A stretch of 32,000 bases of DNA from Corynebacterium glutamicum ATCC 13032. GTDB taxonomy: Bacteria > Actinomycetota > Actinomycetes > Mycobacteriales > Mycobacteriaceae. The DNA lies in NCBI RefSeq assembly GCF_000011325.1, contig NC_003450.3, forward strand, positions 1,860,001-1,892,000. The letters run 5' to 3'. The number at the start of each line of letters is the position of its first letter. Position 1 is the first letter of the stretch. A program made the position numbers and the translations under genes. Positions 6,223-31,707 of this stretch are shown here, one piece after another. The notes under the pieces were generated by a model. It was not told the origin of the DNA. It searched no databases and saw nothing but the letters and a program-made list of their open reading frames with translations.

Positions 6223-6243
6223 TCAACACACCAGCCCTCCACA

Positions 6244-7098: not shown

Positions 7099-7877
7099 TG
7101 ACCACACCTCACTCCCACCGCGCACCACGTCTGGCATCCACGGTCATTATTGCCCGCGAGTCTGCTGACTCAGGTACCTTAGAATTCTTTATCCAGCAGC
7201 GACAATCCACTATGGCTTATGCAGCAAACGCTGTTGTTTTCCCAGGCGGCGGTGTTGAGGACAGCGATTATCCCTTTATGCTCCCCCACCGCGATCAGCA
7301 CATGTCGCCTGAACACATCAAGCATCATGCCAGCCGACTCCACATGGACTCAGAAACTATGGCAGCTCATATTTCCGCTGCACGCCGGGAAGTATGGGAA
7401 GAAACAGGCGTTGATCTCGGTAATTACAACCATGAACTCATCCCGATCGACCGCTGGATCACACCTGATATTCCTGCTTTTAGGCGCCGTTACGACACCG
7501 CCACCTTTGTACTTATTCTAAGCAAAGACAGCACTAACGCAGCTCTGCAGCACCAGCATCAAACCACCGAGGCCACCCATTCTTATTGGGCAACTGCAGA
7601 AGAACTGCTCACTCAATGGTCAACAGGTCATCTCAACCTGTTGTTACCAACGTGGTGGCATATCAACCAGCTCAATCACCTCCACACGCTAAACCAGCTG
7701 TATAGCTTTGCCCAGCGTACCCATAATCCGCAGCACACTCCACCCACAGTGTTTGCTAACTGGACTGCACCGGCTGATGAGGCCGCCATGCAGCACTATG
7801 GGTTCCCTGATCCCGATGCGTACTTTGACCATGCCACTATCGCAGGAAAACACCACACACTCATCACAAGAAAGTAG
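7098..7877 (+). CDS. NUDIX-family hydrolase with an insertion inside the Nudix box
   Basis: FPGGGVEDSDY is separated by about 45 aa from AARREVWEETGVDL (the REx2EExGU half of the Nudix box). The gene is translationally coupled to the upstream ORF. Confidence 0.75.
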   Translation: MTTPHSHRAPRLASTVIIARESADSGTLEFFIQQRQSTMAYAANAVVFPGGGVEDSDYPFMLPHRDQHMSPEHIKHHASRLHMDSETMAAHISAARREVWEETGVDLGNYNHELIPIDRWITPDIPAFRRRYDTATFVLILSKDSTNAALQHQHQTTEATHSYWATAEELLTQWSTGHLNLLLPTWWHINQLNHLHTLNQLYSFAQRTHNPQHTPPTVFANWTAPADEAAMQHYGFPDPDAYFDHATIAGKHHTLITRK

Positions 7878-7885
7878 GTCTCACC

Positions 7886-8590
7886 ATGACTTTTGCAGAA
7901 CTTAGCTCACCGCGTACCATCATCGCTTTTAATGGCCGTGCCGAATCTGGCAAAGATACTGCAGCACAGTATCTCACCCATATGCACAGTTTTCACCGCA
8001 TCGCCTTTGCCGATGGTGTCCGTGACGCACTCTATGCGCTTAACCCACTGGTCTGTGTGGAGCAGGCTATCACCACACATGGTGCCATTTATGACCGCGT
8101 GGCCACTGTTGTGGACACACTTGGTTGGGATACCGCAAAGCAAATCCCCGACATCCGCGCACTTATGCAGCGTATTGGTACCGAAGCTGGTTGGCGCATC
8201 CACGGCGAGCATCTGTGGGTCAATCTTGCTATCAAAAAGATCAATGAACTGCCCGCTGACCACGCCATTGTCATCACTGATTTGCGATTCCCCAATGAGA
8301 TTGAGTGGTTGAACAGCCTCAAAGCCAACCCGATGAACACCATTCAGACCGTCAAAGTCATCCGACCAGATCATGAATCGACCTTGACTGCAGGATCATT
8401 CGGTACTACCTCACATATTTCCGAAAGCTTTAATCTCACTACCGACACTGTGCTCCGCAACGATGGCACCATTGACGATTTGCACTCAAAGCTGGCTGAT
8501 TTTTTGAGCACTTCCCCGCAGCCCGTGCTCTCTCGTAACGCCCCTGTACCAAAACACAACGCACCGGCACCAACCACTGATGCCATGTAA
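7886..8590 (+). CDS. P-loop kinase resembling phage T4 gp1-type deoxynucleoside-monophosphate kinase
   Basis: IIAFNGRAESGKDT (P-loop) and VITDLRFPNEIEWL (DxRFxNE) match the dNMP-kinase family pattern. Confidence 0.65.
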   Translation: MTFAELSSPRTIIAFNGRAESGKDTAAQYLTHMHSFHRIAFADGVRDALYALNPLVCVEQAITTHGAIYDRVATVVDTLGWDTAKQIPDIRALMQRIGTEAGWRIHGEHLWVNLAIKKINELPADHAIVITDLRFPNEIEWLNSLKANPMNTIQTVKVIRPDHESTLTAGSFGTTSHISESFNLTTDTVLRNDGTIDDLHSKLADFLSTSPQPVLSRNAPVPKHNAPAPTTDAM

Positions 8591-8650
8591 ATAACCCCCG
8601 TATCAAGATCACTGCCACACAGCAGCTCTTGATACGGGGGTTATTTTTTT
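8591..8650 (+). terminator. rho-independent terminator
   Basis: A 16-bp stem, AACCCCCGTATCAAGA (8593-8608) / TCTTGATACGGGGGTT (8627-8642), is followed by T7 (8644-8650). It also closes the convergent minus-strand operon. Confidence 0.8.
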
Positions 8651-8667
8651 GCTCAACAGCTCATACC

Positions 8668-8895
8668 TTAACCAAAGCTAAAGCCATCATTTTGCTGCTG
8701 AACTTGGGTTTCTTCCTGGATAACAGGTCGCTCTTCTTGGTTCATTGCCTGATAACGCTGACGCATCCGAAGCTGCTGGTCCACAGAGTTGAGCACACCG
8801 TTCGCGTCCATACCACCCTCTCCAAGTCGTACCTGCGTCTTAGGTACGCCCATAAGCTCTTGGGTGTCGCGGTTTGTCGGATCTGGGGTCGTCAT
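8668..8895 (-). CDS. small hypothetical protein (75 aa), last gene of the polymerase operon
   Basis: The start lies 28 nt after the 722-aa ORF stop, with GAAAGAAG upstream. No domain recognised. Confidence 0.4.
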   Translation of the reverse strand: MTTPDPTNRDTQELMGVPKTQVRLGEGGMDANGVLNSVDQQLRMRQRYQAMNQEERPVIQEETQVQQQNDGFSFG

Positions 8896-8923
8896 AATAA
8901 ATTCTTCTTTCTATCATTTTCTA

Positions 8924-11092
8924 TTAATAACCGTACTGCGGATCATTGGTTTTCGCTTCAGTCTCACGAACATACGCTTCATAAGGATTCGCGGGTCGTT
9001 CCTCTGGCAGATTCGATTCACGGAAATCATGAACATTCATATCCAGCTGTGCTGCCTGATTGATTTGCGCTGCTTGTACACGACGACGAGCTGCCAGTTC
9101 TCGACCTGATCCACGATTTTCTTGAGGTCGAACCATAGCATCAGTGTACTCGCTGCTCGTGTCTTTTTCCATAGTTATGGATTTAACAAAAGCGTCCGCA
9201 TCCTGCCCAAATGTCTGCCCATGTTTGCGCACAAACTTATCCAGAATCGCTGGATGATCACGCTGCATCACCTTCTCAGCCTGATCCATCGCCCATACCT
9301 GAACCTCCTTGACCTGCTCAGTCGTCATCGCGGTCTGATTACCATCATCCTGCAACACCTTGATCGCTGCCTGTGTGCGCTGTGCCATAGCAATCTGGCG
9401 CACCCGAGAAGCACTGCGACCACGTGTATCAAAGTCAGGTAACAGTTTCTTCGCAGAGGCGAGGCCACTTTCTGAGACATCAGTCGCTGTCATGAAGCCG
9501 GCAACTACATCACGAACGCCATCGGAACCGTACTGCTCACCAGCTACCCGCATTTCTGTCGCCAAAGTCGCAGCCAGGTTGTCAGCGAAGTTCTGCGCAT
9601 TACCCATCGGCTCACGAACACTAAACCAGCCGGCGTTTTTACTCAAACCTGCACCATCAGGGAATTGCCATGTCGGGGTCTTTGAAATCACCATGCCACG
9701 TCGTTGTTCACCCAGGCGCACGGTGCCAAAAGCCGTCTCATTAAACCGGGCAGCATAGCCTGGATCGCGCTCCATGCGACGACCCACAATATCGCGGGCA
9801 GCGCCATAAATATCCTTCGACTTCAGGCCATGCTCTTCACCCTGCTTGACCACCATGTCAATATCTTCTGCCACCTGTGCAGAGACATCCTTCGCATCCA
9901 CTATCGCTTGACCATCCGTATCTACTTCACGCATCGCCTCATACGCTTGATCAGACAACCGAACCACGGTCTGCGCGGCAGAAGCAACACTCATGGGGAT
10001 TCGTTCACGGTTGCTGATGATCGCTGTTTTCTGCTGCATGAACGCATCAGAGAGCGACTTCGCTTCCTTCTCCGTCTTATCGCGCGTCAGCTTTGACTTC
10101 CAAAAATCTTTGGACACATACTTCGACAACTTAGTGTCTTTAGCCTGTTCCAGATCCTTGTTAAACTTGCGCTTCATATCCACGTTCACACCGGTCATAC
10201 GTGGGCTCATGCACCACATCACCGCAGCAGTCGTACACGCGGCCATCACCGTTTGAGTGTTGACCCCTTTGCGCAGTGGTCCCATCGCAGCCTGTGCCAT
10301 CTCTTGGGCAAAATTATCATGAGCTGCATTGATCTTCCGCTTACGAGCAGCTGCATCTTTGGCATCCCGTGCTAGGTACGGATTATCACTTTTTGGTGGC
10401 TTGGCATACTTCTTTTCCGCTGCTTTGCGTTCCTTTTTGGCAACGTCAATAGGGTCAAAACTCTGTGCATGGACTTCACGCATGTGCAGCTGCTCATCCA
10501 CACCAGAAAGATTAGCCTCATTATCAGCTACATCTTGTGCGCCACTACGCGGTACACCAGCCTCATCAGCGAGTCGATCATCATCACTACGATCATCTTG
10601 TCCAGCACGCACCCAATGACTGGTATCAAATTCTTCGACATCACTGAGGTCATCAAAATCAGACGGAGCTGATTCACCAAAAATGCTGCGCTGTTCACCA
10701 TCAGCAACCTCATAACTCGGTGTTATCTCAGATGGGTGAAGCTTTCGCCGAGGCAACACATCACGCAGTGTTTCTGGTTCCTCAGACTCACCATAAGCAA
10801 CAGGCTGTTGCTCTACACCAATAATAGAAGCCAAGTCGCTGCTACTCATGACATTTTTCCTTGGGTCATGCAGCTGCCCCAACGTCTTAGGCTGGGTTAA
10901 TGACTGGACAGAAGATACCTCGACACTAACCTCTTCTACCTGTTCATTTACATCAGGCGCCTCTGCTTGTTCACGCACCTGCTCACTTGCTTGTGCAGCA
11001 AGACTAATCTCCGCCTCTACGACTGCCTGGGCACGCCGAGCCACCCGCTCTTCTCGTATCTTATTCTTCTCATTCCCAGCCACTGTCACCAC
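8924..11092 (-). CDS. large hypothetical protein (~720 aa), acidic N-terminal third
   Basis: A long uninterrupted ORF. AAGGAG overlaps the upstream stop. Three GTG candidates lie within 12 nt, so the start is uncertain by a few codons. I see no recognisable catalytic motif. Confidence 0.75.
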   Translation of the reverse strand: MVTVAGNEKNKIREERVARRAQAVVEAEISLAAQASEQVREQAEAPDVNEQVEEVSVEVSSVQSLTQPKTLGQLHDPRKNVMSSSDLASIIGVEQQPVAYGESEEPETLRDVLPRRKLHPSEITPSYEVADGEQRSIFGESAPSDFDDLSDVEEFDTSHWVRAGQDDRSDDDRLADEAGVPRSGAQDVADNEANLSGVDEQLHMREVHAQSFDPIDVAKKERKAAEKKYAKPPKSDNPYLARDAKDAAARKRKINAAHDNFAQEMAQAAMGPLRKGVNTQTVMAACTTAAVMWCMSPRMTGVNVDMKRKFNKDLEQAKDTKLSKYVSKDFWKSKLTRDKTEKEAKSLSDAFMQQKTAIISNRERIPMSVASAAQTVVRLSDQAYEAMREVDTDGQAIVDAKDVSAQVAEDIDMVVKQGEEHGLKSKDIYGAARDIVGRRMERDPGYAARFNETAFGTVRLGEQRRGMVISKTPTWQFPDGAGLSKNAGWFSVREPMGNAQNFADNLAATLATEMRVAGEQYGSDGVRDVVAGFMTATDVSESGLASAKKLLPDFDTRGRSASRVRQIAMAQRTQAAIKVLQDDGNQTAMTTEQVKEVQVWAMDQAEKVMQRDHPAILDKFVRKHGQTFGQDADAFVKSITMEKDTSSEYTDAMVRPQENRGSGRELAARRRVQAAQINQAAQLDMNVHDFRESNLPEERPANPYEAYVRETEAKTNDPQYGY

Positions 11093-11097: not shown

Positions 11098-11373
11098 TTA
11101 AAAGTCCATATCGTCAAACTGATTATTCTGAGCTGCTGCACCTGTGCGTTCAAAACGACGCAACAATTCTGCGGCACCCAACCGTGCTGTTCGCACATGC
11201 GCCGGCACAACAGCCGCTAATTCTTTATCTGTTAAAGGTGACACAGGCTGCGCTGCAACCTCTACCACGGGGTCAGAGGCAACCACCTCACGTGCAACAG
11301 ATCGACTCTGCTGTCGTGGTGTAGCTCTCATGCTCTGACCCCGCGTTCCTTTTCTGCTGAAATCTACTGCCAT
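11098..11373 (-). CDS. small hypothetical protein (91 aa) coupled to the polymerase gene
   Basis: Its ATG lies 3 nt after the polymerase stop (TAA ATA ATG). Confidence 0.55.
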   Translation of the reverse strand: MAVDFSRKGTRGQSMRATPRQQSRSVAREVVASDPVVEVAAQPVSPLTDKELAAVVPAHVRTARLGAAELLRRFERTGAAAQNNQFDDMDF

Positions 11374-11376: not shown

Positions 11377-14300
11377 TTAGAGCTCAAACCCGCCATCCTG
11401 TCGTTGTGGTGGTTCCTGTTGGTTGTAACGGCTTGTATCAAATCGACCCATAAACTGATTGTTCGCACCACCATGAGTAAACGGGTTTCCTGTACCTGGC
11501 TTCGGCACAACCGGAGTAGGCGGAACAGAATTCTGTGGTACCGGATTATGCACAGGCGGAATATTCTGCTGCTGAGGCACAACTGGCTGTTGCGCCCCCA
11601 TTGCAGGTCCCTGATGTCCATAATTCCCGATTTTTCCGCCCTGGTCGAGTGGCTGACCAACGCCCCGGAAGTCCGTCTGAGCAGGCGAAACAGGTTGCTG
11701 TGCCGGAGGTGTGACAGGCATAACTGGCGGGGTCGCAGGCACCTGCTGCTGAACATAATTCCCCTGTACACCTGCATCAGGTAACGGTGCTGGTGCAGCA
11801 ATCCCTGTACCTACTTCTGCCGGCACACGACGCTCAATACGGAAACCAGAACGTTGTGGGACTCGCTCAAAGCTCGCCAATGACTGCTGTGCAGAAATCG
11901 ACTGAATCTCCACATCAGGGATACCAAAACGCGCTGCATCCTCCATTGCCTTCATATTGGCGCGCACCACACGAGGGGCAAAGTCATAAGCATCACCGTC
12001 GTAGATGTTGACCTGCTGCTTTGCCATCTCGCACAACAAATCAAAGCGGTTCTTCTTATCGCCATAGGCAAGCTGATCAAGTGCTAGTGGCTTAATCTCA
12101 GTGGGTAGCTCATCATGGCTAAGCACACGCATATAACCCTGCTCATCAGAGAATTCTTCCGCGATCTTCTCCACCTGGTCAACGCCAACCGAGACACCCA
12201 TACCCTTGTCATCGGCGTACATCTCCATGTACTGCTGTACCCATTCATCCTTGGTGGCCTGGATAGGCTGGTGGTTCTCGTCCCTAACGACTTCCCACTC
12301 ATAGCGACCTTGCTCATTCTCACCACGACGCATCTTGCGACCTTGGTAGAGATCACCTACTGGTCCCATAAGAGTTTCTGCACGATAGAGCGCGTCAATC
12401 GGGTCGTGCTTCGCCTGCAGAATCGACTGCTGTGCCGGTGCTGATGCAGCCATAGCTTCCTTGGTCAGACCAAGATTGCGGCACAATGCCACCATTTCCT
12501 GCTCTTTTTTACCAGCCACACCGGTAAAGAGCACCTTAATTGCAGTCGCCTTCTGCGAACCCTCATAGTGGCTACGCAGCGCTTCTGGCGTTGGTTGACC
12601 TACGTCTTTAAAACCCTGCGCCGGATCAGCGCCGATATAGGTGGCATATTCCTTCAGCTTGCCAGGCGAACCTTTCGCACCCGTCTCGAAGCACTGCGCA
12701 ACAGAAGCCATATGGTTTTCCATACCGTCAAAACGCAAGGTCACCAAACCATCGCGGTTGGCAAAAGCCTGTGCATAGTGCTCATTGAGATCATCCATGT
12801 GTGCACGGTTGACCTCTAGCAATTCTTCGCGGCTAATCTCGCCGGCCTCGTATTCACGCTGGTAGCGGTTAAGCTCAGAGACAATAACCTTCATGTTCTC
12901 GGCCATTGCCGGATCATGGTGCTGCGCTACCTGTACATCGAGGCTGTCATGCAGAGTTAGCCCATAAAACATAGTGCCGTCCTCCATACGCTTACCATCA
13001 CCAAGATCAAGCATGTTTGCCTCAACTGTGAGCCTGGACAATGCCTCCTCATGCGCCTTTTTCGGCAGATTGCCGACCAGACCTACAGAGTCACCATCGA
13101 AGTCACCGTCAAAGCTCTTCACCGACACAGGGTTGACTGCCACACCGTGCAGATCATCATTAATAACCACACGCAAATAGCGCACACCACCATCGCGGAT
13201 CACCGGATCACGCCACACCATTGCATAACCGTTATCGAGAACGCCGAGTTCACGTGCCATCGAAGAGTTCATGGCTACTTCATCAACTGACAGGCGTGGA
13301 TCACCTGTCCACACAGCAGTAGCGGAGTGTGACTGTCGCGCCGACATAAAGCCGTCCTTGAACACATTGTTCTTGGTCTCGATCCGGCTGGCGACAATAT
13401 CATTAGCAATTCCATCAAAGCTTGCCTGCACCTTTTTCTGTGCTTGATCAACAAACTTCTGTGACTCGCTCAGTCGCTTTTCCGCAGCACGAGGCAACGT
13501 GCCGTGCTGCGCTTCCTCCTGGCGCAATGCGTCAATCTTGGCTTGCTCTTCTGCCAGCTTGTAGCACGTATCAAAAATAGCCATATACCGCGTGGTGTAC
13601 TCATGTCGAGAGGTACTACCGTCCGCTAAATCCTCATCACTGCGCAAATGCGGGCTCAGTAGTGGCAACTGATACATGTCTGGATTATTAGGTGACTCTT
13701 CTAGCTGTGCACCATTGCGCAACTGTAACTGGAAAGGAATCTCCATAACACCACCAGCGCGACTGATCTGCTCAACAAAAGCTTCGCGCACCTGTGCACG
13801 ATTAACACGATTATTCAGCTCACCGTTCTCATCGTAAATGCTTGGCATCTCGATGATATTGCGCTGCTCATTGGACTCGCTGAACCCCTCGCGCAACTCA
13901 CCATACGGGGTGACATCAAGCCCCGTGACGCGAAGATATTCCTGGAAGTTAGCCAATGCAGAGACGTTGTTGCCATAAAAGTGCTCCATAATCTCATGAC
14001 ATTCCTGGGCTTGGAGCACCCACGCCAGCTGAGAAGACGCTTTACGTCCTTGGCCCTCACGAACAGCTTCTTCATCATAGACATTGGTTTTCGCATCAAC
14101 AGCCATATGCGTGACGATGAAGTTGAGATCACCAGAGGCACCTGGTTGAACACGAGTAGAACCATCATTATTCCTGAACACCACATCCTGCGGGTTGTTC
14201 ATGAGCTCACGTGCCGTGCCACCATTAAAACGAGAAATGGCAGAAAACGGACTCATGACAACCTCTAGATCAGGGTTGTCTCGGAAAAACGCCACCTCTG

Positions 14301-17300
14301 ATTCCAGCCCTGCTGCACGTGCATCAGCATCACTCATCGCTGGATCAACAACAAGAGCGATCACACCCTTATTACCGTGAAAATCAGACAGCTTATCGCC
14401 GGCAACCAAGGGGCGCATCTCATCTTCCGTATCGCGAATAACATGGGTATTCGCAAAATCGGCAGAGACAATAATGCCATCTTCAAAGTTCCAACCGCCC
14501 AGCTGTATCATCGCAGTGCGTGCACCACCAGTCACAGCGCTAGCCTGCATGATGTTCGAGAAAGTCATGTTCTGACGGTCATGTGGGTCAAAGCCCATCG
14601 CCCATGATTCTGGATGCGCTGCAACAGGTACTCGATCAGCCGGATCACCAGGGGTAATCATGCCATCAGCGCCCACCTTCGCAGAAGGCAACAAATAGCG
14701 AACAGAACCCTGGTTCGCCGCCATACCAGTCATCATGGGATCAAAGAAACCTTTACCCGCATCAACATCAAGTACAGAAATGTTACGCCCACCGGTAAGC
14801 ACCAGCGCATCACGGGAGTTATCATTACGCGCATCAAAACCACGCTGCTGTGCTCGAATATCCTCCATCACATTCGCACCATCACGAATAGAGTTGTCGT
14901 AGCGCACACGCAAACTCGCAGTCTCAAGCAACGCAGCACGCCACTCATCGCTCAAACCTTCTTCGGCGCTGCGCTCGAAGAAGTCCACAGGGAAGCGATT
15001 GTCATACAGTCGCTTATATGCACTGTTGATGCTGGTTGTAGCACCCACTCGGGATCGCTCAGTGAACATCAAATCTTCTCGCACACGGTACACCAACGCC
15101 TCTGACATCACCTGCTCATAGCCTTTGAGCTTGGTACGCTCTTCTAAACTCTTTGTCTCACCAGGCTTTTGTGGTACCACAGACGCGGTGTAGCCAGGGG
15201 CAAACATATAGTTCTCGCCACCATTAAATTTGGTGACAATTTCACCATGCTCACCGCGAGTAAAAATCTGACCTATCTCACCCTGCACATGACGGGTGCG
15301 TTCACCGCGAACCTGCCCCTTACTATCTACTGCACGACTATCCTTCGCACCAACACGTCGCTGTGCGGTCCACCGCACCACACCGTTATCGTCAACAGCA
15401 ATATCGACCACATCAGCACCATTGCGGGAAATAGTCTCGGCAATGACAGTGCCAAATCGAGCCAACTGCGGGTCAAGATCAGGGTTATTAACCATTTTCT
15501 GCGCGGTCTCAGGATTAAATTTGAGCAACTGTTGATTAATAACATCGTTATAGAATTCGTCACCGCGCAGTTCATCGCCAGTAATCGAAGTCGCTCGCAA
15601 CGCGGCAATAATATCGTCATGGTTTGACCACAGGGATTTAGCACTCGGCATGTGCTGAGCAACTGTCACCGGATTAAAACGCAAGCCGGTAACAGGATCA
15701 GGCTCCACCGTGCCGACATAATCATCAAGAACAAGGGCCGCGTGCTGACGCACACGATCCTCCACGGTCACAGCATTCATTGCTGAGGTCATCGCAGCAA
15801 TCTGCTCATGATCACCATCGCGGATAGCAGCCATATAATCATCGCGGTTAACCCCAGGGTTAAGCAGATCGGTTTCCTCACCTCGCAGCATCGCCCAATA
15901 GTCCTGCTTTATCGCCATGAGCTCATCCTCACCAGCAAAAGCCGGCATGAAGTCAGGATCATCGGCGTACTGTGCAGAAAGCGCAATCAGTTCTTCAACG
16001 CCGAGCTCTTCGGCCACACGCGCACGAGTAAGGGCGATATTGTTACCAAGCCACTCCGATGCTTTCGCTTCATTATCAAACCACTTTCCAGGACCAGCAC
16101 TTCGATCACGTGCATCCTGAACGATCGAGAGCCCTTCACGCACCATGAATGCGGAACGATTCTTAGTGAAATATGCATCCTGTGCCTGCTCTAAAGCACG
16201 TGGGTGTCGAGCATTAGGCACACCAACAAGACCTTTGCCATCCTGTCGCTCAACCTCTCGACCGAGAGCAAATTTCACGAGATCGACAACTTCAGTTGGG
16301 CTTGGTTCATAATCAGTAGCCGGTGTCCACGTTCCATCACCGTTCTCCATGCGCTCACGAGCTCGTAGACGTTCTTCCGCTGTTTGTTCGGCGGAATACT
16401 TAATCACAGTGCCAGAATCATAGACACGACCCACCCACTGTTCATTGGCGCGAGTATCAGTGAGACGAATATCAATACGGGTGCCCTCAATACGCACTTT
16501 AAGCTGTCCCGGCTCACGATCTGGCTCGATCCTAAAATCCACACCCTCATCCGACAGATACGTCAAAATAGCTTCCGAGCGCGCGATACCCTCATCAGAC
16601 ATGACCTTGTTGGGGTCAATTTTCTGACTCGCAACATCTGCGGTATCAATGAGTCCAGCACGCAGCCATGACGCTGCGGCACGGTATTCTTTAGCCGTCA
16701 TAAACTGACCAATATTGGGCAGTCGCATCTGGTCATTCTCGGTGATAGTGCGCCAGGCAATAGCTTCACCATTGACCCATTGAGTCAACGGTCGCACACC
16801 GCCTTTAGTGTCGTCTTCTCGATGAGTGCCCTCGTAAACATCATTATCTTGTAGGTGGATCGTTGCTAGATCAAGGTCCCTGATCATGCCAACACTCTCT
16901 TCGGACAGTGATAGCAGCTTGGTACCGTGCACACGGACTACTTCGCGGTCTGACCAGCGTGGATCATAAGGCGAAATAGGTAAACGACGACCACCCAGAT
17001 CAGGTCCCTCAGGCAAACCATTAGGTCCAATTGCAGTGCCGACCATCTTGTCGAAACGGTGACGCAGCGCCTGGTACCCCTTTGAACCCTCACCCTCGCG
17101 AGCAATCGCACTAAACATGGGTGCTGCGTGAGGTGCCACCTCAGCAAAGGCAGCATTGACAGAGGCGAAGAATGCCTGAGTACTCCCCCGCTGCTCTACT
17201 GGTTCATAGGTTGCGAGATGCTCATCAACAAGCGCTCGGATCGCACGGCCATCAGAGGTGCTAAACTGCGACACACCAGCATCAACGTGCGTACCCCAGG

Positions 17301-17886
17301 TACCAAACATCTCGACACCTTCATAGAAGGCGTACTCCCGGAAATAGCTCTCCATCGGATCAATGACAGGTAAACCCACACCCTCTGATTGGCGAACGGA
17401 CTCTTGCGCGAGCGTTTGTTCAGCCTGGAATGTTGCTTGATCACGTGCCTGGAAAATAGCTGCCTGCTCTTGCTCATAAGCAGCTTGCTGTAGCGCTTGT
17501 GCCTGCTGCTGTTGGGCCACGAGATCCTGCTGCACCAGCGCGTCATAAGATGACTTAATCGCCGTGTATTGCGGTGAATTAAGAATATTTCGCCTAGTTA
17601 CCTTCGCGAACTGTGGTCGGTGTACACAGCCATGAGCTTCGGCATCAGCGGCGAAGGCATCATCGAAAGACGCAAACATGATGGCGCCATAGGTCGCTTC
17701 ATCATTGAGGTCTAAGCCCTTATTGTTTGCTGCGCGCTGTTTCATCAAGGCTTCTGCTTGCCTATAGATACGCACAGCATCGTGATCACCCAGTGGAGCT
17801 TTGCCCCAGTGATCTTTTTGACCCCACTCTGAGCGCGCCATCTCAAGCGACCGTTCAAAAGCGTGTCGAAATAAAGTTTTGGACAT
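11377..17886 (-). CDS. single-chain beta-beta' fusion, multisubunit-type (two double-psi beta-barrel) RNA polymerase homologue, 2169 aa
   Basis: AAGGGAGGA RBS. RpoB-type motifs: FDPMMTGMAANQG, HDRQNMTFSNIMQASAV, GGWNFEDGIIVS, GDKLSDFHGNKGV, VVMSPFSAISRFNGG, GQGRKASSQLAWVLQAQE. RpoC-type motifs follow: VWTGDPRLSVDEVAMNSSMAREL, VWRDPVIRDGGVRYLRV, SFDGDFDGDSVGLV, ETGAKGSPG. Confidence 0.88.
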   Translation of the reverse strand: MSKTLFRHAFERSLEMARSEWGQKDHWGKAPLGDHDAVRIYRQAEALMKQRAANNKGLDLNDEATYGAIMFASFDDAFAADAEAHGCVHRPQFAKVTRRNILNSPQYTAIKSSYDALVQQDLVAQQQQAQALQQAAYEQEQAAIFQARDQATFQAEQTLAQESVRQSEGVGLPVIDPMESYFREYAFYEGVEMFGTWGTHVDAGVSQFSTSDGRAIRALVDEHLATYEPVEQRGSTQAFFASVNAAFAEVAPHAAPMFSAIAREGEGSKGYQALRHRFDKMVGTAIGPNGLPEGPDLGGRRLPISPYDPRWSDREVVRVHGTKLLSLSEESVGMIRDLDLATIHLQDNDVYEGTHREDDTKGGVRPLTQWVNGEAIAWRTITENDQMRLPNIGQFMTAKEYRAAASWLRAGLIDTADVASQKIDPNKVMSDEGIARSEAILTYLSDEGVDFRIEPDREPGQLKVRIEGTRIDIRLTDTRANEQWVGRVYDSGTVIKYSAEQTAEERLRARERMENGDGTWTPATDYEPSPTEVVDLVKFALGREVERQDGKGLVGVPNARHPRALEQAQDAYFTKNRSAFMVREGLSIVQDARDRSAGPGKWFDNEAKASEWLGNNIALTRARVAEELGVEELIALSAQYADDPDFMPAFAGEDELMAIKQDYWAMLRGEETDLLNPGVNRDDYMAAIRDGDHEQIAAMTSAMNAVTVEDRVRQHAALVLDDYVGTVEPDPVTGLRFNPVTVAQHMPSAKSLWSNHDDIIAALRATSITGDELRGDEFYNDVINQQLLKFNPETAQKMVNNPDLDPQLARFGTVIAETISRNGADVVDIAVDDNGVVRWTAQRRVGAKDSRAVDSKGQVRGERTRHVQGEIGQIFTRGEHGEIVTKFNGGENYMFAPGYTASVVPQKPGETKSLEERTKLKGYEQVMSEALVYRVREDLMFTERSRVGATTSINSAYKRLYDNRFPVDFFERSAEEGLSDEWRAALLETASLRVRYDNSIRDGANVMEDIRAQQRGFDARNDNSRDALVLTGGRNISVLDVDAGKGFFDPMMTGMAANQGSVRYLLPSAKVGADGMITPGDPADRVPVAAHPESWAMGFDPHDRQNMTFSNIMQASAVTGGARTAMIQLGGWNFEDGIIVSADFANTHVIRDTEDEMRPLVAGDKLSDFHGNKGVIALVVDPAMSDADARAAGLESEVAFFRDNPDLEVVMSPFSAISRFNGGTARELMNNPQDVVFRNNDGSTRVQPGASGDLNFIVTHMAVDAKTNVYDEEAVREGQGRKASSQLAWVLQAQECHEIMEHFYGNNVSALANFQEYLRVTGLDVTPYGELREGFSESNEQRNIIEMPSIYDENGELNNRVNRAQVREAFVEQISRAGGVMEIPFQLQLRNGAQLEESPNNPDMYQLPLLSPHLRSDEDLADGSTSRHEYTTRYMAIFDTCYKLAEEQAKIDALRQEEAQHGTLPRAAEKRLSESQKFVDQAQKKVQASFDGIANDIVASRIETKNNVFKDGFMSARQSHSATAVWTGDPRLSVDEVAMNSSMARELGVLDNGYAMVWRDPVIRDGGVRYLRVVINDDLHGVAVNPVSVKSFDGDFDGDSVGLVGNLPKKAHEEALSRLTVEANMLDLGDGKRMEDGTMFYGLTLHDSLDVQVAQHHDPAMAENMKVIVSELNRYQREYEAGEISREELLEVNRAHMDDLNEHYAQAFANRDGLVTLRFDGMENHMASVAQCFETGAKGSPGKLKEYATYIGADPAQGFKDVGQPTPEALRSHYEGSQKATAIKVLFTGVAGKKEQEMVALCRNLGLTKEAMAASAPAQQSILQAKHDPIDALYRAETLMGPVGDLYQGRKMRRGENEQGRYEWEVVRDENHQPIQATKDEWVQQYMEMYADDKGMGVSVGVDQVEKIAEEFSDEQGYMRVLSHDELPTEIKPLALDQLAYGDKKNRFDLLCEMAKQQVNIYDGDAYDFAPRVVRANMKAMEDAARFGIPDVEIQSISAQQSLASFERVPQRSGFRIERRVPAEVGTGIAAPAPLPDAGVQGNYVQQQVPATPPVMPVTPPAQQPVSPAQTDFRGVGQPLDQGGKIGNYGHQGPAMGAQQPVVPQQQNIPPVHNPVPQNSVPPTPVVPKPGTGNPFTHGGANNQFMGRFDTSRYNQQEPPQRQDGGFEL
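11380..11829 (-). other. P/Q-rich low-complexity C-terminal tail of the polymerase (aa ~2020-2169)
   Basis: The sequence includes PAPLPDAGVQGNYVQQQVPATPPVMPVTPPAQQPVSPAQ...PVVPQQQNIPPVHNPVPQNSVPPTPVVPKP. Confidence 0.8.
12457..13344 (-). other. beta'-subunit-like catalytic module (aa ~1515-1810) including the Mg-binding DFDGD loop
   Basis: DFDGD is encoded at 13090-13104 (gacttcgatggtgac on the minus strand). An SGAKGS-like element and a bridge-helix-like segment lie downstream. Confidence 0.8.
13987..14769 (-). other. beta-subunit-like catalytic module of the fused polymerase (aa ~1040-1300)
   Basis: GDKLSDFHGNKGV is encoded at 14362-14400 (checked by back-translation). The flanking RpoB-like blocks are listed under the parent CDS. 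Confidence 0.8.
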
Positions 17887-19411: not shown

Positions 19412-20488
19412 ATGAAGCCCACCGTTAATGTTGTGTTCAATGCGCATCACCCCAAAGATACGCAGCCGTTGGATAAGTTCTTCGATAAAGAACTTAAAGA
19501 CACACATCATCTCGATATAACGGTGGGTTATATCAGTGAGAAATCACTACAATATTTGCTTCTTATTGCAGGCACTCACCCCGACCTCACCATCACACTC
19601 ACCTGTGGAATGCACGCTCGTGAAGGCATGACTGCTGCCCAACTGCATCATGCGCGAGTGCTCCATGACTACTTAAGCGACCATGATCGAGGCGGGGTGT
19701 TCGTTATTCCCCGATTGCGTTATCACGGCAAAATCTATCTTTTCCACAAGAACCAGCACACAGATCCTATTGCTTATATCGGTAGCGCTAACCTCTCAGC
19801 CATCGTTCCTGGGTACACCTCTACATTCGAGACCGGCGTCATCTTAGACCCCGCACCTGAAGATCTCGTGCTTCATCTCAACCGTGATGTCGTACCCCTA
19901 TGTGTCCCCATTGACACCGCGCATGTCCCCATCATTAAAGATCAAGAATCCCCGATGAAGCACGTCGCTGAAGCAACAGCTGTGTCCACCTCTGATGTTG
20001 TTGCCATCATGTCCAGCCCATTTACTTATAGTTTTGACCTTAAACTCAAAGCCACTGCCAGCAGCAACCTCAATGCTCATAACTCAGGCGGTGGCGCGCG
20101 CAAACAGAAAAACGGTAGCTTCCTTGCACGCAATTGGTATGAGGGCGAAATCATTGTCGGTGTCGAGACAACAAGACTCCCAGGTTACCCACAAAACAAA
20201 TCCGAATTCACTGCGGTCACTGATGACGGCTGGTCATTTGTTTGCAAAATCAGCGGAGGAAACGGAAAGAACCTACGCAGCAAAGGTGACCTGTCCATCC
20301 TCGGTACGTGGTTAAAGTCTCGATTCATTGAACAAGGTGCCCTGGAATACGGCGAGGATGCCACCCAAGAAAACATCGACCGTTTTGGGAGAACACATAT
20401 GACCATGCGCTATCACCCAGATTTCGATGTGTGGTCATTCGATCTCAGCCAAACCCCGAAGCCTTCGACACAGATTGGGCAGGATTAA
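19412..20488 (+). CDS. cglIR: restriction endonuclease R-protein: PLD-family (HxK) nuclease domain plus C-terminal B3-like DNA-binding region, R.CglI/R.NgoAVII type
   Basis: HKD motif HGKIYLF...YIGSANLS. The gene sits 8 nt after the MTase stop. The architecture is as described for CglI/NgoAVII. Confidence 0.85.
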   Translation: MKPTVNVVFNAHHPKDTQPLDKFFDKELKDTHHLDITVGYISEKSLQYLLLIAGTHPDLTITLTCGMHAREGMTAAQLHHARVLHDYLSDHDRGGVFVIPRLRYHGKIYLFHKNQHTDPIAYIGSANLSAIVPGYTSTFETGVILDPAPEDLVLHLNRDVVPLCVPIDTAHVPIIKDQESPMKHVAEATAVSTSDVVAIMSSPFTYSFDLKLKATASSNLNAHNSGGGARKQKNGSFLARNWYEGEIIVGVETTRLPGYPQNKSEFTAVTDDGWSFVCKISGGNGKNLRSKGDLSILGTWLKSRFIEQGALEYGEDATQENIDRFGRTHMTMRYHPDFDVWSFDLSQTPKPSTQIGQD

Positions 20489-20489
20489 T

Positions 20490-22388
20490 TTGTCACACCA
20501 CACTCACCTCAATAACTACATCACGAGCTTGAGTGATAACGCTGATCTCCGTGAAAAAGTCACCGCAACCGTAGACGCTTTCCGCCATACCGTCATGGAT
20601 GACTTCGACTACATCAGTGATCAACAAGTCCTGCTTTATGGCGATGTCCAAAGCGGTAAAACCTCACACATGCTGGGAATTATCGCAGATTGCCTCGACA
20701 GTACGTTTCACACCATTGTTATTCTGACCTCGCCTAACACACGGCTCGTGCAACAAACATACGACCGTGTTGCCCAAGCATTTCCAGATACTTTGGTGTG
20801 CGACCGTGACGGATACAATGATTTCCGTGCGAATCAAAAGAGCCTCACCCCGCGAAAATCTATCGTAGTCGTCGGAAAAATACCTGCAGTTCTTGGTAAT
20901 TGGTTACGCGTCTTTAACGACAGTGGCGCACTTTCTGGACACCCTGTACTCATTATTGATGACGAAGCAGATGCGACAAGTCTCAACACCAAAGTAAATC
21001 AGTCTGATGTTTCGACCATTAACCACCAGCTCACTAGCATAAGAGACCTTGCCACAGGATGCATCTACCTTCAGGTCACAGGTACACCTCAAGCGGTGCT
21101 TCTTCAAAGCGACGATAGCAACTGGGCAGCGGAACATGTGCTTCACTTCGCACCTGGTGAGAGCTACATCGGTGGTCAACTTTTCTTTTCTGAGCTCAAC
21201 AACCCTTATCTACGACTTTTCGCTAATACCCAATTTGACGAGGATTCTCGCTTCAGCGACGCCATTTACACCTATCTCTTAACCGCAGCACTGTTCAAAC
21301 TTCGCGGTGAAAGCTTGTGTACCATGCTCATTCACCCCAGCCACACTGCATCCAGTCATAGAGACTTCGCGCAAGAAGCCCGCCTCCAACTCACTTTCGC
21401 CTTCGAGCGATTCTATGAACCAATGATTCAGCACAATTTCCAACGTGCTTATGAACAGCTCGCACAAACTGACAGCAACCTGCCACCCTTGAGAAAAATT
21501 CTTAACATTCTTGGTGGCATGGAAGATGACTTCTCCATCCACATCGTCAATAGCGACAACCCGACTGTTGAGGAAGATTGGGCTGATGGTTATAACATTA
21601 TTGTCGGTGGCAACTCGCTTGGGCGCGGTTTAACATTCAACAACTTGCAAACCGTTTTCTACGTGCGCGAATCCAAGCGACCACAAGCAGACACCCTGTG
21701 GCAGCACGCCCGCATGTTTGGCTACAAACGCCACAAAGACACCATGCGTGTGTTCATGCCGGCCACTATTGCTCAAACCTTCCAAGAGGTCTATCTCGGC
21801 AACGAAGCTATTAAAAATCAGCTCGATCATGGCACGCATATCAACGACATTCGGGTCATTTTAGGTGATGGCGTCGCACCTACTCGTGCCAATGTTCTCG
21901 ACAAACGCAAAGTTGGAAACCTCAGCGGTGGCGTCAACTACTTTGCCGCTGATCCTAGAATCAAGAATGTCGAAGCACTCGACAAAAAACTCTTGGCCTA
22001 CTTAGACAAGCACGGTGAGGACTCCACCATCGGTATGCGCGCGATAATCACCATTCTCAACGCCTTTACTGTAGACCCCAACGATCTCGACCTCGCGACC
22101 TTCAAGGCTGCGCTCCTTGACTTTGAACGCAACCAACCTCATCTCACAGCACGTATGGTGCTGCGAACAAACCGCAAAGTCAATCAGGGTACAGGCGCCC
22201 TGCTCTCCCCTACTGATCAAGCTCTCAGCCGTGCAGAAGTCGCACACCCATTATTGATCCTATACCGCATTGAAGGTGTTAACGATGCTGCTGCGCAACG
22301 AGGTGAACCTACGTGGTCAAGCGACCCTATCTGGGTGCCTAATATTAAACTCCCTGGTCAACGTCAATTCTGGTGCGTAGACGGCTAA
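20490..22388 (+). CDS. cglIIR: NTPase N-protein of the CglI/NgoAVII-type system (P-loop + Z1 domain)
   Basis: Walker A YGDVQSGKTS and DEAD-like LIIDDEADATS. Z1-like VGGNSLGRGLTFNNLQTVFYVR...LWQHARMFGYKR. I prefer TTG 20490, directly after the cglIR stop and with GCAGGA upstream, over ATG 20427 inside cglIR. Confidence 0.82.
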   Translation: MSHHTHLNNYITSLSDNADLREKVTATVDAFRHTVMDDFDYISDQQVLLYGDVQSGKTSHMLGIIADCLDSTFHTIVILTSPNTRLVQQTYDRVAQAFPDTLVCDRDGYNDFRANQKSLTPRKSIVVVGKIPAVLGNWLRVFNDSGALSGHPVLIIDDEADATSLNTKVNQSDVSTINHQLTSIRDLATGCIYLQVTGTPQAVLLQSDDSNWAAEHVLHFAPGESYIGGQLFFSELNNPYLRLFANTQFDEDSRFSDAIYTYLLTAALFKLRGESLCTMLIHPSHTASSHRDFAQEARLQLTFAFERFYEPMIQHNFQRAYEQLAQTDSNLPPLRKILNILGGMEDDFSIHIVNSDNPTVEEDWADGYNIIVGGNSLGRGLTFNNLQTVFYVRESKRPQADTLWQHARMFGYKRHKDTMRVFMPATIAQTFQEVYLGNEAIKNQLDHGTHINDIRVILGDGVAPTRANVLDKRKVGNLSGGVNYFAADPRIKNVEALDKKLLAYLDKHGEDSTIGMRAIITILNAFTVDPNDLDLATFKAALLDFERNQPHLTARMVLRTNRKVNQGTGALLSPTDQALSRAEVAHPLLILYRIEGVNDAAAQRGEPTWSSDPIWVPNIKLPGQRQFWCVDG

Positions 22389-22466: not shown

Positions 22467-23990
22467 TTAAGCATCTTCAATACGCCTAAAGGCTCGCGCG
22501 ACTTCTTTATCAAAGTGACCCTGGGCGAGATCACGCCAATGCGGAAGCTCCACCAGCATGATGCGGAATGCTCGGGTGGTCTTATATTTACCCATAGCAG
22601 ACAGCGGATCATCCTCTGTGCCAGATAGAGCTTCTTCACCCTCAGAGTAGACACGCGACTGCTCCACTCCTGCTTGCGCGCGCATAAGTGCAATATCTTC
22701 CTGCGACAACGCCTCAATCAACACAGTGCCATCGACAGCATTAACCAAGCCGTTGTTAGCAGTCACCCGGAAATTCGGATCTTGAGCAAAAGCGTGCAGG
22801 CTCTCATCATAGGCTGCAGTGAGCTCATCTTCGAGTGAGTCCTGCAGGATGTGGCCGAATTGATCAGCCAGCATATCTCGTGACACCTTGCCTTCGGCAT
22901 AACGCTTCAACCGCATGTCAGCGAGCTTATGTTCTGCATTCTCCTGATCGTGAATGAATTCATCATTGACCTCTGCTTCTTCAGACAGAGATTTCTTTTT
23001 CACCTTCGTACCAGTAGCCACGGGGAAGCCCTGAGCACTGTCTTCGAACTCATCATCAAAAACGTCATATTCAGACTCCATGAAATCACGAGCATTCATG
23101 ACAGACTCATCCCCCTCGTCATAATCCGGCGTGTCATCGTACTCATCTTTCGCGATCATCGTGTCCACGATGTCCATGATTTCTGCTGAATACACATCCA
23201 TATCCAGGCGTGCAATATCAGAGTCATCGAGCCCAGTCGCCTTTTTATAAATATCGACGGCACGCTGAGTACGAATCGACTGCGCCATGCGCTTTTCCAG
23301 CATCGCCATAAAGTCCGGTGCATTTTGATTCACATCGAATTCATTAGCGCTCGACAGTGTTGGAATAGTCTGCAACGAGTATTCGCGACCCGGTTGGATA
23401 ATCTGGTTAGCAAACAACATGAACGACATCGGCCAAATCGTTTCATTGCGTGACCACACCGGATACTGACCCGCACGGAAGACGATGGCGTTCTGCGATG
23501 GCAGAGTATTTAGGTCATTATAAGACACCACCGGCTCTTTTTCAGTTGCAGACGTGTACGACACTTTACCCTCGGTGCGCATAACTAACTGTGCCAAGTC
23601 ACGGGTTACGGTCTTTGAATTTCTGCGTACAACATGTCGCTCACCTGACCAATCCACCAACGTCTTAATCATTGTTTCGTCTGTGGATTTCAAGAAGATA
23701 ATGTTGGACGTGTTGTGGGTCGGGATCATATCGTCAGTGATGTAGAGATGGTCACGGTCGGCAATGCTGATGCATTGCACGGTATCGCGGCGGGAGAATT
23801 CTACAGAGACGATTTCATTGTCTGCTGCGGGCACGTCGAGACGTGCCCGATCTGCTGGATCGAAGTTGTCGAGGATCTCTGGCGCCCGCGCTGCGACACC
23901 AGGCAGAAACACCTTATCCCCTCGTGCCAGCATCGCTTTAAGCTCTGCCGTGGTGACGATTCTGCGCTCGCCAGCAAGTGTTTGCGTCAT
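22467..23990 (-). CDS. C-terminal intein fragment (93 aa) fused to the C-terminal extein of a TraG/VirD4-type coupling ATPase (414 aa, acidic tail)
   Basis: Own RBS: GAAGGGG 9 nt upstream of the ATG. Intein blocks F/G: DTVQCISIADRDHLYITDDMIPTHN|T. The extein TSNIIFLKSTDETMIKTLVDWSGERHVV...NAIVFRAGQYPVWSRNETIWP matches the T4CP region after the Qx2QLx3YG motif. Confidence 0.85.
   Translation of the reverse strand: MTQTLAGERRIVTTAELKAMLARGDKVFLPGVAARAPEILDNFDPADRARLDVPAADNEIVSVEFSRRDTVQCISIADRDHLYITDDMIPTHNTSNIIFLKSTDETMIKTLVDWSGERHVVRRNSKTVTRDLAQLVMRTEGKVSYTSATEKEPVVSYNDLNTLPSQNAIVFRAGQYPVWSRNETIWPMSFMLFANQIIQPGREYSLQTIPTLSSANEFDVNQNAPDFMAMLEKRMAQSIRTQRAVDIYKKATGLDDSDIARLDMDVYSAEIMDIVDTMIAKDEYDDTPDYDEGDESVMNARDFMESEYDVFDDEFEDSAQGFPVATGTKVKKKSLSEEAEVNDEFIHDQENAEHKLADMRLKRYAEGKVSRDMLADQFGHILQDSLEDELTAAYDESLHAFAQDPNFRVTANNGLVNAVDGTVLIEALSQEDIALMRAQAGVEQSRVYSEGEEALSGTEDDPLSAMGKYKTTRAFRIMLVELPHWRDLAQGHFDKEVARAFRRIEDA
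23712..23990 (-). other. Int-C half of a split class-3-like intein
   Basis: Cys73 (codon 23772-23774) sits at the block F Asp position. T91-H92-N93 are followed by Thr+1 (23709-23711). ERRIVTTAELKAMLARGDKVFLP is a typical mid-intein segment. Confidence 0.75.
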
Positions 23991-30024: not shown

Positions 30025-31707
30025 TTAAGCTGCAAGAGCGTAGTTTTTCGCTACGCAACTGGTCGCACTAAATTGTTGTTCTTGTCCCAGACCGATCGAG
30101 AGCATGGTTTCAAATCCCGCAATACCATGACCCTCACTCTGAAGGTTTCCCAACTCGTCCAACATGAAACGAGTCTTATAATCCGGCTTCTGATTCTCAC
30201 GCGTCATATACGAGGAATCGAAGTTCAGATCCACAAGCTGTTTGATGAGAATCAAAATCAACTTCGCATATTTCATAAGATGCGGAGGCGTTACGAAGAA
30301 CACTGCCTTAGGCTTCTCCGAATACCGCACATTCAGAGCCGACACCGCATCAACCATCGCATCAACCTGCTTGATCATGTCATGACCCGGCATATTGATC
30401 TGTTCCTGCGTGAGTTGGTCAAGATTCAGTTTCTTCGTCTTAAACTGCACATGACCTGGAACAAAGTCACCAGCATCGTTTTTCACCAGCTCGATCAGCA
30501 GACCATTCTTAATGATCTTCTCATCGGTCACCGGATCAGTAATAAACGCACGGCCTTTAAGGTTCGTTTGGTAGCCCTTGGTGAACTTGAAGTACAGAGT
30601 CTTGATCAACGTGCCAGAAGTACCATTGAGAATCCGCAAACGCAGGTACGCAGTATTACTCGGGAACGAGTCTTTAATATAGAACCGCGCCCAACCCTCA
30701 ACCGACAGCGTGTCATCATGAACAAAATTCTTACCCAACGGCTTGGTGAACTTGGCGTCACTATACGCATCCCATTTCACCTGTGATCCAACCAGGTTGT
30801 AGCGCTTCACATAGGGGGCCGCAAAACGAACACCCATGCGCCGTGGAAACGACAATCCGGCCAAGTCAACGTTCTGACTTAGTGTGCCTGAGGTTAACGT
30901 TGAAATTGTGGGGTCTGTAAAGAAGGACATCGCTGTAATCGCGATACCGTAGACCGACGCCATCATTTTTTCAGCGCCACCCATTGCTTTCAGGGCCTTA
31001 TCTGCGTTGCCCACCAGAGTACGAACACTGGACTTTGGCAGACCGTCTGTGGCACTAAAGAACAAGGTGAGCATGTCTTTTTCTTTCTCACCCTCCCACA
31101 GAAACATTTCGTTCTCTTCGGCCTCTGTCACAGCATCCTGGAACATCATGGCTGCATTTTCATCAGTCTCTAAGTTACCGAATTCACCGGCACGTGCACG
31201 TTCATTGAGTCGCTCAACGGGATTCTTCAGCTTCTTTGCCGAAAGCTGCACAAAGAGCTGGTAGCAGTTGTAGAGCGTGACCTTACCCCACATCTGATCA
31301 ATACGTGTATCAAGCACCTTGGCATCCCAATTCTCAGCTGCAGCCTGCTTGCGCATCTCGCGCTCCTCTTCCAAATAGAAGTCGATAAGACCATAGGCTG
31401 CACGCTTGAAGGCATTGTTGGCCGCATTCGGCCATACCGGATCATCGGCACCGTCCACCGGAAAGAACACCTCTGCGATATTTTCCACATAGGTTGCGCA
31501 CTTCATCCCGTTACCTTCGCGAGCTGCTTCGGCTGCTAATCCCAACGGGTTATAAATATCAGTTTTCAGGTTGTTAATCAGGTTAAACTGAACAACCTGA
31601 AAACCGCGCTTAGACATCCGAACATAATTTTTCTTCAGCAACTCGCCTTTAGGGTCGTTGATACACATATTGTTCGGTCGAGTTTCCCTCGTCCACATGT
31701 CGATCAT
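30025..31707 (-). CDS. coupling-ATPase (TraG/VirD4/TraD-type) central exon; the last 14 codons (SATSCVAKNYALAA*) are intron read-through, and the frame is open upstream to 31734
   Basis: INDPKGEL (the DPKGE block following the P-loop). KTRFMLDELGNLQSEGHGIAGFETMLSIGLGQEQQF (Walker B region). There is no Walker A, so the N-terminal exon must lie upstream. Confidence 0.75.
   Translation of the reverse strand: MIDMWTRETRPNNMCINDPKGELLKKNYVRMSKRGFQVVQFNLINNLKTDIYNPLGLAAEAAREGNGMKCATYVENIAEVFFPVDGADDPVWPNAANNAFKRAAYGLIDFYLEEEREMRKQAAAENWDAKVLDTRIDQMWGKVTLYNCYQLFVQLSAKKLKNPVERLNERARAGEFGNLETDENAAMMFQDAVTEAEENEMFLWEGEKEKDMLTLFFSATDGLPKSSVRTLVGNADKALKAMGGAEKMMASVYGIAITAMSFFTDPTISTLTSGTLSQNVDLAGLSFPRRMGVRFAAPYVKRYNLVGSQVKWDAYSDAKFTKPLGKNFVHDDTLSVEGWARFYIKDSFPSNTAYLRLRILNGTSGTLIKTLYFKFTKGYQTNLKGRAFITDPVTDEKIIKNGLLIELVKNDAGDFVPGHVQFKTKKLNLDQLTQEQINMPGHDMIKQVDAMVDAVSALNVRYSEKPKAVFFVTPPHLMKYAKLILILIKQLVDLNFDSSYMTRENQKPDYKTRFMLDELGNLQSEGHGIAGFETMLSIGLGQEQQFSATSCVAKNYALAA

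Follow-up and report, generated by a model that had tools for sequence, protein, structure and literature searches.

The window analysed here, a stretch of 32,000 nucleotides from Corynebacterium glutamicum ATCC 13032 (contig NC_003450.3, positions 1,860,001 to 1,892,000), encodes NCgl1702, a protein predicted to be a single-chain two-barrel nucleotide polymerase, in which a part resembling the β subunit of RNA polymerase (RNAP; aa ~1040-1300) is followed by a part resembling β’ (aa ~1405-1810), both of them apparently pared down. The explanation that best accounts for the data as a whole, and which is considered highly probable, is that NCgl1702 represents the intact two-barrel polymerase of a conjugation module, and that it would synthesize RNA for the transfer or the establishment of the element that carries it. 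The core of this claim, a divergent single-chain β-β’ RNAP on a mobile element, has been known since 2003 and adds little. What is added here is the size of the family, the lack of kinship with the polymerase YonO, an N-terminal module without a known fold, and the linkage to a coupling protein.

The recognition of NCgl1702 (2169 aa) as a distant β::β’ fusion has been credited to Iyer, Koonin and Aravind (2003), and about 40 of its conserved residues have been mapped onto the two barrels, switch 2, and the funnel (PMC2919709). Descriptions of this divergent fusion have been published by Iyer et al. in 2003, by Ruprich-Robert and Thuriaux in 2010, and by Iyer et al. in 2021, and NCgl1702-like enzymes have been reported to lack the SBHM insert (PMC7824862). 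The protein encoded in the window is 100% identical across 2168 aa to BAB99168.1 from C. glutamicum ATCC 13032. An initial reading made from the letters of the window, referred to here as the sequence-only reading, had set it apart from all known single-chain polymerases; it is not an undescribed protein but the published one, with the same length and the same interpretation (two barrels, switch 2, and funnel kept; SBHM flap missing). The 2010 paper stated that relatives of NCgl1702 were lacking, closely related corynebacteria included, whereas approximately 370-500 clusters at 50% identity are now recognized, and it is this larger family that has made a confident structure model and the analysis of its conjugation-locus context possible. 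The open reading frame (ORF) begins with an ATG preceded by AAGGGAGGA, has a good ribosome-binding site, and runs without interruption, and the identical protein is present on 190 contigs. On these grounds, a pseudogene or an annotation artefact has been rejected.

The relationship to RNAP is best seen with profiles, which were needed because a phmmer search of the PDB with the single NCgl1702 sequence gave a best E value of only ~1.5. The family profile retrieved β’ chains of the PDB at ~1e-13, across residues 241-492 of E. coli β’, with a weak second stretch at the β’ SGARGS motif, and the profile of aa 900-1340 matched exclusively β/Rpb2 chains, with E values down to 3.8e-11. Comparison by hhalign paired aa 1156-1226 with β 1057-1114 of E. 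coli RpoB (probability 87.7%) and aa 1405-1626 with β’ 241-492 of E. coli RpoC (probability 96.4%, E 1e-9), and eleven motif blocks are collinear with those of E. coli from β 559 through β’ 733. Pfam finds Rpb2_6 at aa 1156-1181 (E 4.8e-4) and Rpb1_2 at aa 1551-1616 (E 1.6e-3) in the NCgl1702 sequence itself, in the expected order. Among 24 family members, Rpb2_6 is detected in 23 (best E 5.8e-16) and Rpb1_2 in 22 (best E 4e-12), with distant Firmicute relatives exceeding the Pfam gathering thresholds for both, and the PHROGs match of NCgl1702 is a family named “RNA polymerase beta subunit”. An AlphaFold2 model of aa 861-2010, built on a 71-sequence alignment, reached a pLDDT of 91.2 and a pTM of 0.89. 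When this core model was compared to the PDB with Foldseek, the top 50 matches were essentially all bacterial β’ chains (E from 1.8e-10), and in the viral library BFVD it matched subunits of the Rpb1 type, among them those of giant viruses and jumbo phages as well as the baculovirus protein LEF-9. The sequence matches to the large subunits of RNAP are far above chance.

Eight residues are invariant across all two-barrel polymerases (PMC2919709). Their counterparts in NCgl1702 (D1595, D1597, D1599, D1136, K1165, K1173, R1559, and P1561) show no variation in the alignments of 24 and 71 family sequences that were used to assess invariance. The aspartates D1595, D1597, and D1599 align with the NADFDGD motif of E. 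coli β’, R1559 and P1561 lie in a WRDP block (Rpb1 R446 and P448) that aligns with NRAPTLH, with R1559 as the equivalent of β’ R425, and both K1165 and K1173 (Rpb2 K979 and K987) and D1136 align with GDKMAGRHGNKG and NFED of E. coli β. According to these correspondences, the active site is complete, with the three aspartates of the β’-type barrel and D1136 placed for two-metal catalysis, and K1165, K1173, and R1559 are the counterparts of the residues of cellular RNAP that touch the nucleoside triphosphate (NTP) and the RNA 3’ end. All ten motif blocks listed in the sequence-only reading lie exactly at the residue numbers it had given, its nucleotide ranges for DFDGD (13090-13104) and for the GDK..GNKGV block (14362-14400) are correct, and its central proposal of a two-barrel polymerase in one chain, β first and then β’, whose catalytic site is intact, is borne out by profiles, fold, and invariant residues. 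The family-wide form of the aspartate motif is FDGDFDGD, in which the Asn-Ala of NADFDGD is replaced by Asp-Gly (aa 1593-1594; 13105-13110, minus strand).

The remainder of the chain departs from cellular enzymes in several ways (the features are collected in the table below). The β-like module contains, in order, a fork-like FDPMMTG block, DRQNM..N..Q, NFED, GDK..GNKG, SPFS..SRFN, and GRKASSQLAW, and the β’-like module contains LPLLSPHLRS, a long helical hairpin that occupies the place of the clamp helices in the AlphaFold model, the WRDP block, and the catalytic barrel. The distance between NFED and GDK is merely 30 aa in NCgl1702, compared to 252 aa in E. coli β, which indicates that the β flap (the SBHM insert) is absent. 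In a similar manner, the first ~240 residues of β’ are absent, given that the β’-like part begins at the equivalent of β’ 241, as the sequence-only reading had suggested on noticing a shortened β’ N-terminus. In E. coli, part of the clamp is built from these first ~240 residues, which also hold the zinc-binding element. Lacking both the flap and the β’ N-terminus, the enzyme is predicted to be one whose initiation cannot follow the σ70 route. None of the other Rpb1 and Rpb2 domains of Pfam (Rpb2_1-7 and Rpb1_1-5) was found in NCgl1702 beyond Rpb2_6 and Rpb1_2, and the NCBIfam models rpoB and rpoA1 score 14 bits on it against cut-offs of ~900-1000. Likewise, when longer relatives of 2222-2382 aa were scanned with Pfam, no extra effector, primase, or helicase domains were revealed.

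The family-conserved N-terminal module yields a confident AlphaFold model (pLDDT 86.3, pTM 0.75). This model has no known fold (best E of 0.65 with Foldseek against the PDB) and the module has no Pfam match, in agreement with the sequence-only reading, which had found no recognizable motif in this large region. An assignment as the absent β lobe/protrusion, or as any known domain, is not demonstrable, Foldseek against the PDB giving no significant match. At the other end, the last 150 residues contain 18.7% P, 14% Q, and 12.7% G, so that the P/Q-rich tail described by the sequence-only reading is confirmed by its composition, and it is specific to the lineage: both aa 1-176 and aa ~1965-2169 are restricted to Corynebacterium.

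Table. Features of the window related to NCgl1702 and its module (positions are those of the window)
Feature	Coordinates	Strand	Remarks
Polymerase ORF, 2169 aa, complete	11377..17886	-	NCgl1702 (BAB99168.1); locus tag cg1995 assigned from its position beside cg1996-cg1998
N-terminal extension, aa 1-176	17359..17886	-	lineage-specific; Q/A-rich at aa ~115-165; relatives align from ~aa 177
N-terminal module, aa 177-900	15187..17358	-	family-conserved; includes invariant LPISPYDPRW (aa 302-311)
β-like module, aa 1040-1300	13987..14769	-	collinear with E. coli β 559-1278
NFED, aa 1133-1136	14479..14490	-	D1136 invariant, corresponding to β D814 / Rpb2 D837, the fourth catalytic Asp (role: PMC2919709)
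GDKLSDFHGNKGV, aa 1163-1175	14362..14400	-	GDK..GNKGV block; K1165 and K1173 are the invariant lysines of the β-type barrel
β’-like module, aa 1405-1626	13009..13674	-	aligned to β’ 241-492
DFDGD, aa 1595-1599	13090..13104	-	Mg-binding aspartate triad, invariant (Rpb1 D479/D481/D483)
ETGAKGS block followed by a long helix, aa 1734-1803	12478..12687	-	helix at model residues 907-943; K1738 invariant; probable equivalent of region F / bridge helix
P/Q/G-rich low-complexity tail, aa 2020-2169	11380..11829	-	not conserved in relatives
91-aa ORF	11098..11373	-	start 4 nt past the polymerase stop codon
722-aa ORF	8924..11092	-	conserved downstream partner
507-aa ORF, TraG-D_C-like domain	22467..23990	-	C-terminal part of the coupling protein; pGKT2 protein aa 996-1412 (match 23732-22473)
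560-aa VirD4-like ORF	30025..31707	-	middle part of the coupling protein; aa 426-972 of the 1412-aa pGKT2 protein (match 31725-30085)

Among known systems, the cellular β and β’ subunits, including the Helicobacter fusion, share with NCgl1702 the β-then-β’ order, the eight active-site residues, the collinearity of the blocks, and a β’ 241-492 region that can be aligned at E values of 1e-9 to 1e-13. In contrast to the cellular enzyme, the β part of NCgl1702 is squeezed to ~260 aa, without the flap, the beginning of β’ is gone, an extra N-terminal module of 700 aa has been added, and no α, ω, or σ partner is evident. YonO, encoded by the phage SPbeta of B. subtilis, is also a single chain with both barrels, encoded on a mobile element and missing most of the domains of multisubunit RNAPs (msRNAPs). 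This protein is a proven processive DNA-dependent RNAP, whose homology to msRNAPs is reported to be limited to a few residues (PMC5467207). However, YonO has 839 aa as opposed to the 2169 aa of NCgl1702, and it is encoded in a phage beside the late operon, whereas the NCgl1702 family is found in conjugation loci. Moreover, the NCgl1702 family, unlike YonO, keeps a clear similarity to β’ regions C/D and the β GDK..GNKG block, and the sequence comparisons place it nearer to cellular β/β’ than YonO is. The sequence-only reading had named YonO as a relative. The comparison of the family profile with YonO by hhalign detected no similarity (probability 0.2%), and membership of the YonO family has been rejected.

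The Rpb2::Rpb1 protein Orf6 of the yeast linear killer plasmid pGKL2 is another plasmid-encoded single-chain fusion, with the same order and a simplified core (PMC2919709). This protein comes from a eukaryotic cytoplasmic linear plasmid. The killer-plasmid enzymes retain the SBHM insert that is absent from NCgl1702-like enzymes (PMC7824862). A crAss-like (QDE-1-like) virion RNAP has also been rejected: the corresponding fold matches in BFVD (E 3.6e-4 to 1.4e-3) are far below those of the msRNAP type, and there are no virion genes in the window.

At 50% identity, an exhaustive HMMER search retrieved 508 clusters with E<=1e-3, a number that falls to 367 with E<=1e-30. The best 150 hits range from 772 to 2884 aa, most of them between 1.7 and 2.5 kaa, and the full-length ones hold 650-1000 residues before the core. 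The S. aureus homologue has 1787 aa, and that of a Lactococcus plasmid, located near a CHAP-domain protein, has 2382 aa. The proteins of the window were compared by tblastn to 79 related genomic loci. In 76 of these, the polymerase gene is immediately preceded, on its own strand, by homologues of the 560-aa and 507-aa ORFs of the window. In 65-70 of the 79, it is immediately followed by a homologue of the 722-aa ORF, as it is on plasmid pGKT2, the size of this conserved partner varying between 600 and 780 aa across the family. The plasmids pGKT2 from Gordonia and pGS01 from R. fascians show the same succession, in which a mobL relaxase gene and, further on, a gene for a LysM protein precede the adjoining genes for an AAA ATPase, the coupling protein, and the polymerase. 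These are followed by a small ORF and the partner of 720-780 aa and, after an interval, by the genes for a cutinase and SSB. A 55.5-kb plasmid from S. aureus encodes MobL, an AAA ATPase, the coupling protein, the polymerase, a topoisomerase, a lysozyme, and SSB, and no primase is annotated on it. The family is, consequently, a sizeable and regular component of transfer regions with MobL relaxases and VirD4-type proteins in Actinobacteria and Firmicutes, present in those of actinobacterial as well as staphylococcal and lactococcal plasmids. Since 76 of the 79 loci and the plasmids place the gene beside the coupling protein or in MobL transfer regions, the NCgl1702 family would be a conjugation-module polymerase rather than a phage polymerase.

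A ClpB-like AAA+ ATPase, an HU-like protein, and PNKP-type phosphatases are also often encoded nearby in the related loci. Genes for PNKP-type HAD phosphatases occur in 61 of the 79 loci, often in two copies, and the HU-like DNA-binding protein in 54. Both are located just past the 722-aa partner, ~7.8-10.7 kb downstream of the polymerase start (for example, 20208-20696 in locus L023 and 17804-18193 in L076), and their conservation hints at a processing of nucleic-acid ends tied to the module. In a Streptomyces relative (L011), the ClpB-like AAA+ ATPase (475-3420, plus strand) contains a LAGLIDADG domain (Pfam E 4.9e-12), which suggests that this transfer-module ATPase also carries an intein.

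In C. glutamicum, the polymerase gene forms a tight and preserved operon with the 91-aa and 722-aa ORFs, the former being assigned to it because its start lies 4 nt past the polymerase stop codon. Neither of these two proteins has a match in searches of Pfam, NCBIfam, PHROGs, and the PDB. The upstream part is less well preserved. The 560-aa and 507-aa ORFs are pieces of one type IV coupling protein, separated by ~6 kb that contain a gene for an HNH endonuclease, an intein-like fragment, a DUF4379 gene, and a 239-aa ORF, and a restriction system sits between this split gene and that of the polymerase. For these two reasons, the transfer module of C. glutamicum is regarded as decayed, judging from its sequence, and part of what is known as the “CGP3 prophage” may be recast as a decayed conjugative module. 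NCgl1702 may now serve the CGP3 island alone, or nothing.

The coupling-protein gene looks as though it was broken by an insertion, now degenerated, of the intein or homing-endonuclease kind. At a Streptomyces locus (L017), the coupling protein is a single ORF of 1708 aa (4690-9816) with an in-frame insert of ~300 aa at the same site, which is probably an intein, and a 117-aa ORF of the window (27685-28038) is homologous to this insert. The gap also contains a 405-aa ORF resembling HNH homing endonucleases (28228-29445, minus strand; PHROG 374, E 8e-60) and, in the same insertion, the gene for a protein of 606 aa in which the DUF4379 treble-clef zinc finger is repeated four times (25230-27050, plus strand). 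Homologues of the latter, with 44-49% identity, are found in six of the related loci; they lie upstream of the polymerase gene, but their position varies.

With respect to the function, a role in the transfer or the establishment of the element is the most plausible one in view of the genomic context, because the enzyme is encoded with the mating apparatus and adjoins the coupling protein. It is proposed that the enzymes of the NCgl1702 family make RNA on the DNA of the element independently of sigma factors. They would be produced together with the mating apparatus and act on the transferred single strand, where they would either prime the synthesis of the complementary strand or transcribe early genes. 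Such an action on the transferred strand, as primer-maker or early transcriptase, is put forward tentatively, by analogy with Sog, TraC, and the virion polymerase of phage N4, large enzymes encoded with transfer or packaging genes that make RNA on the incoming DNA after entry (PMC5512222). The analogy is functional, as the folds are unrelated (Toprim, AEP, and T7-like), and no Toprim or AEP catalytic domain was found by Pfam in NCgl1702 or in four distant relatives. It is conceivable, if rather doubtful, that the family represents a so far unrecognised third class of entry polymerase in conjugation, which would be sigma-independent, made with the mating apparatus, and sent out through the type IV system with the help of the coupling protein encoded next to it. 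In the recipient, it would act on the incoming single strand, priming the synthesis of its complement and/or transcribing establishment genes, with the N-terminal module of 700 residues serving for template recognition or as a secretion signal. Nothing relevant on a conjugation-linked two-barrel polymerase was found in the literature searched, and the paper on polyvalent proteins deals only with Toprim, AEP, and N4-type enzymes (PMC5512222).

Several points weigh against the interpretation of NCgl1702 as an RNA-synthesizing polymerase of a conjugation module. In the literature searched (Iyer et al. 2003 and Iyer and Aravind 2012 excepted), no functional, biochemical, or genetic study of any family member was found, in line with the sequence-only reading, which knew of no functional description; for this reason, the template, the product (RNA or DNA), and the biological role have all been inferred. 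The translocation of the protein to recipients is hypothetical. Both Pfam matches in NCgl1702 itself score under the gathering thresholds. Regarding the fold, the paired barrels that the sequence-only reading had expected were recovered by Foldseek for the β’ half, whereas the β half relies on sequence profiles. The coupling protein is split in C. glutamicum. Moreover, the gene is dispensable to the host, given that MB001, a viable and routinely used strain, is free of prophages and has none of the CGP3 island (PMC8002715). Finally, the Asn of NADFDGD is an Asp (D1593) throughout the family. In cellular RNAP, this Asn helps to recognize the ribose of the incoming NTP and to select ribonucleotides, and its replacement is the reason why the sugar selectivity of the NCgl1702 family may differ.

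This last substitution also speaks for an alternative in which the enzyme would be a DNA polymerase similar to archaeal PolD, using deoxynucleotides to synthesize the complementary strand of the transferred DNA. PolD shows that a two-barrel core can act as a DNA polymerase. Nevertheless, every sequence and fold match of NCgl1702 is to β or β’ chains of RNAP and none to PolD, R1559 is kept, and Pfam found no exonuclease or clamp-binding module in the protein, which makes this explanation very improbable. A different possibility is that the family is active elsewhere and that NCgl1702 is a functionless relic, cargo of the decayed module in CGP3 with no benefit to the host or to the island. A coupling-protein gene distributed over at least two ORFs and broken by ~6 kb of insertions, the restriction system inserted between it and the polymerase gene, a window without a relaxase, the viability of MB001, and the fact that engineered strains have cg1995 as a neutral site for integration would all fit such a fate. 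Even so, it is regarded as unlikely, given that the 6.5-kb ORF is fully intact, with all its catalytic residues and a good ribosome-binding site, that the identical protein is found on 190 contigs, and that the two ORFs downstream are still joined to it in a tight operon.

The remaining alternative follows from the location of the gene inside the CGP3 island, which spans cg1890-cg2071 (PMC8002715), and from the precedent of YonO as a single-chain two-barrel phage polymerase for late genes. NCgl1702 would then be the RNAP of the prophage itself, transcribing a set of genes of the element after induction without the host RNAP and, as the sequence-only reading had conjectured, possibly with insensitivity to rifampicin; transcription of this kind in the donor by a polymerase of the element would fit a conjugative context too. 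Against this stand the undetectable similarity to YonO, the absence of phage structural genes in the window, and a tblastn search of 50,697 phage records that yielded no relative of NCgl1702, leading to the rejection of a close phage origin. In 76 of the 79 loci, as on three plasmids, the gene has conjugation genes and not virion genes for neighbours. A prophage transcriptase is thus considered quite unlikely, and the prophage framing of the sequence-only reading has proved to be misleading: the gene does lie in CGP3, but its conserved partners elsewhere are the type IV coupling protein, the MobL relaxase, the AAA ATPase, and SSB. If the proposed conjugation-module polymerase is active, it would constitute a minimal polymerase of the msRNAP type, nearer to the cellular enzyme than YonO, and thereby useful for the study of RNAP evolution and minimal catalytic cores. 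It could also be a new player in the priming or the expression of conjugative DNA after transfer in Gram-positive bacteria, with a bearing on the spread of plasmids.

The window encodes further proteins on the plus strand. A ClpB-like AAA+ ATPase fragment is found at its edge (5-730), followed by a 1255-aa UvrD-type helicase (1535-5302), whose ~480 N-terminal residues have no assignment, and by a pair consisting of a NUDIX hydrolase and a dNMP kinase (7098-8590). A UvrD-type helicase and an AAA+ ATPase are encoded near the polymerase in ~12 of the related loci, and the AAA+ family is represented in 77 of the 79. The G+C content of the window is ~50% but falls to 43-44% in two places, at 24-25 kb and 29-30 kb, and the GC skew of the plus strand is negative in 31 of the 32 bins of 1 kb (cumulative value of -4.77), irrespective of gene orientation.

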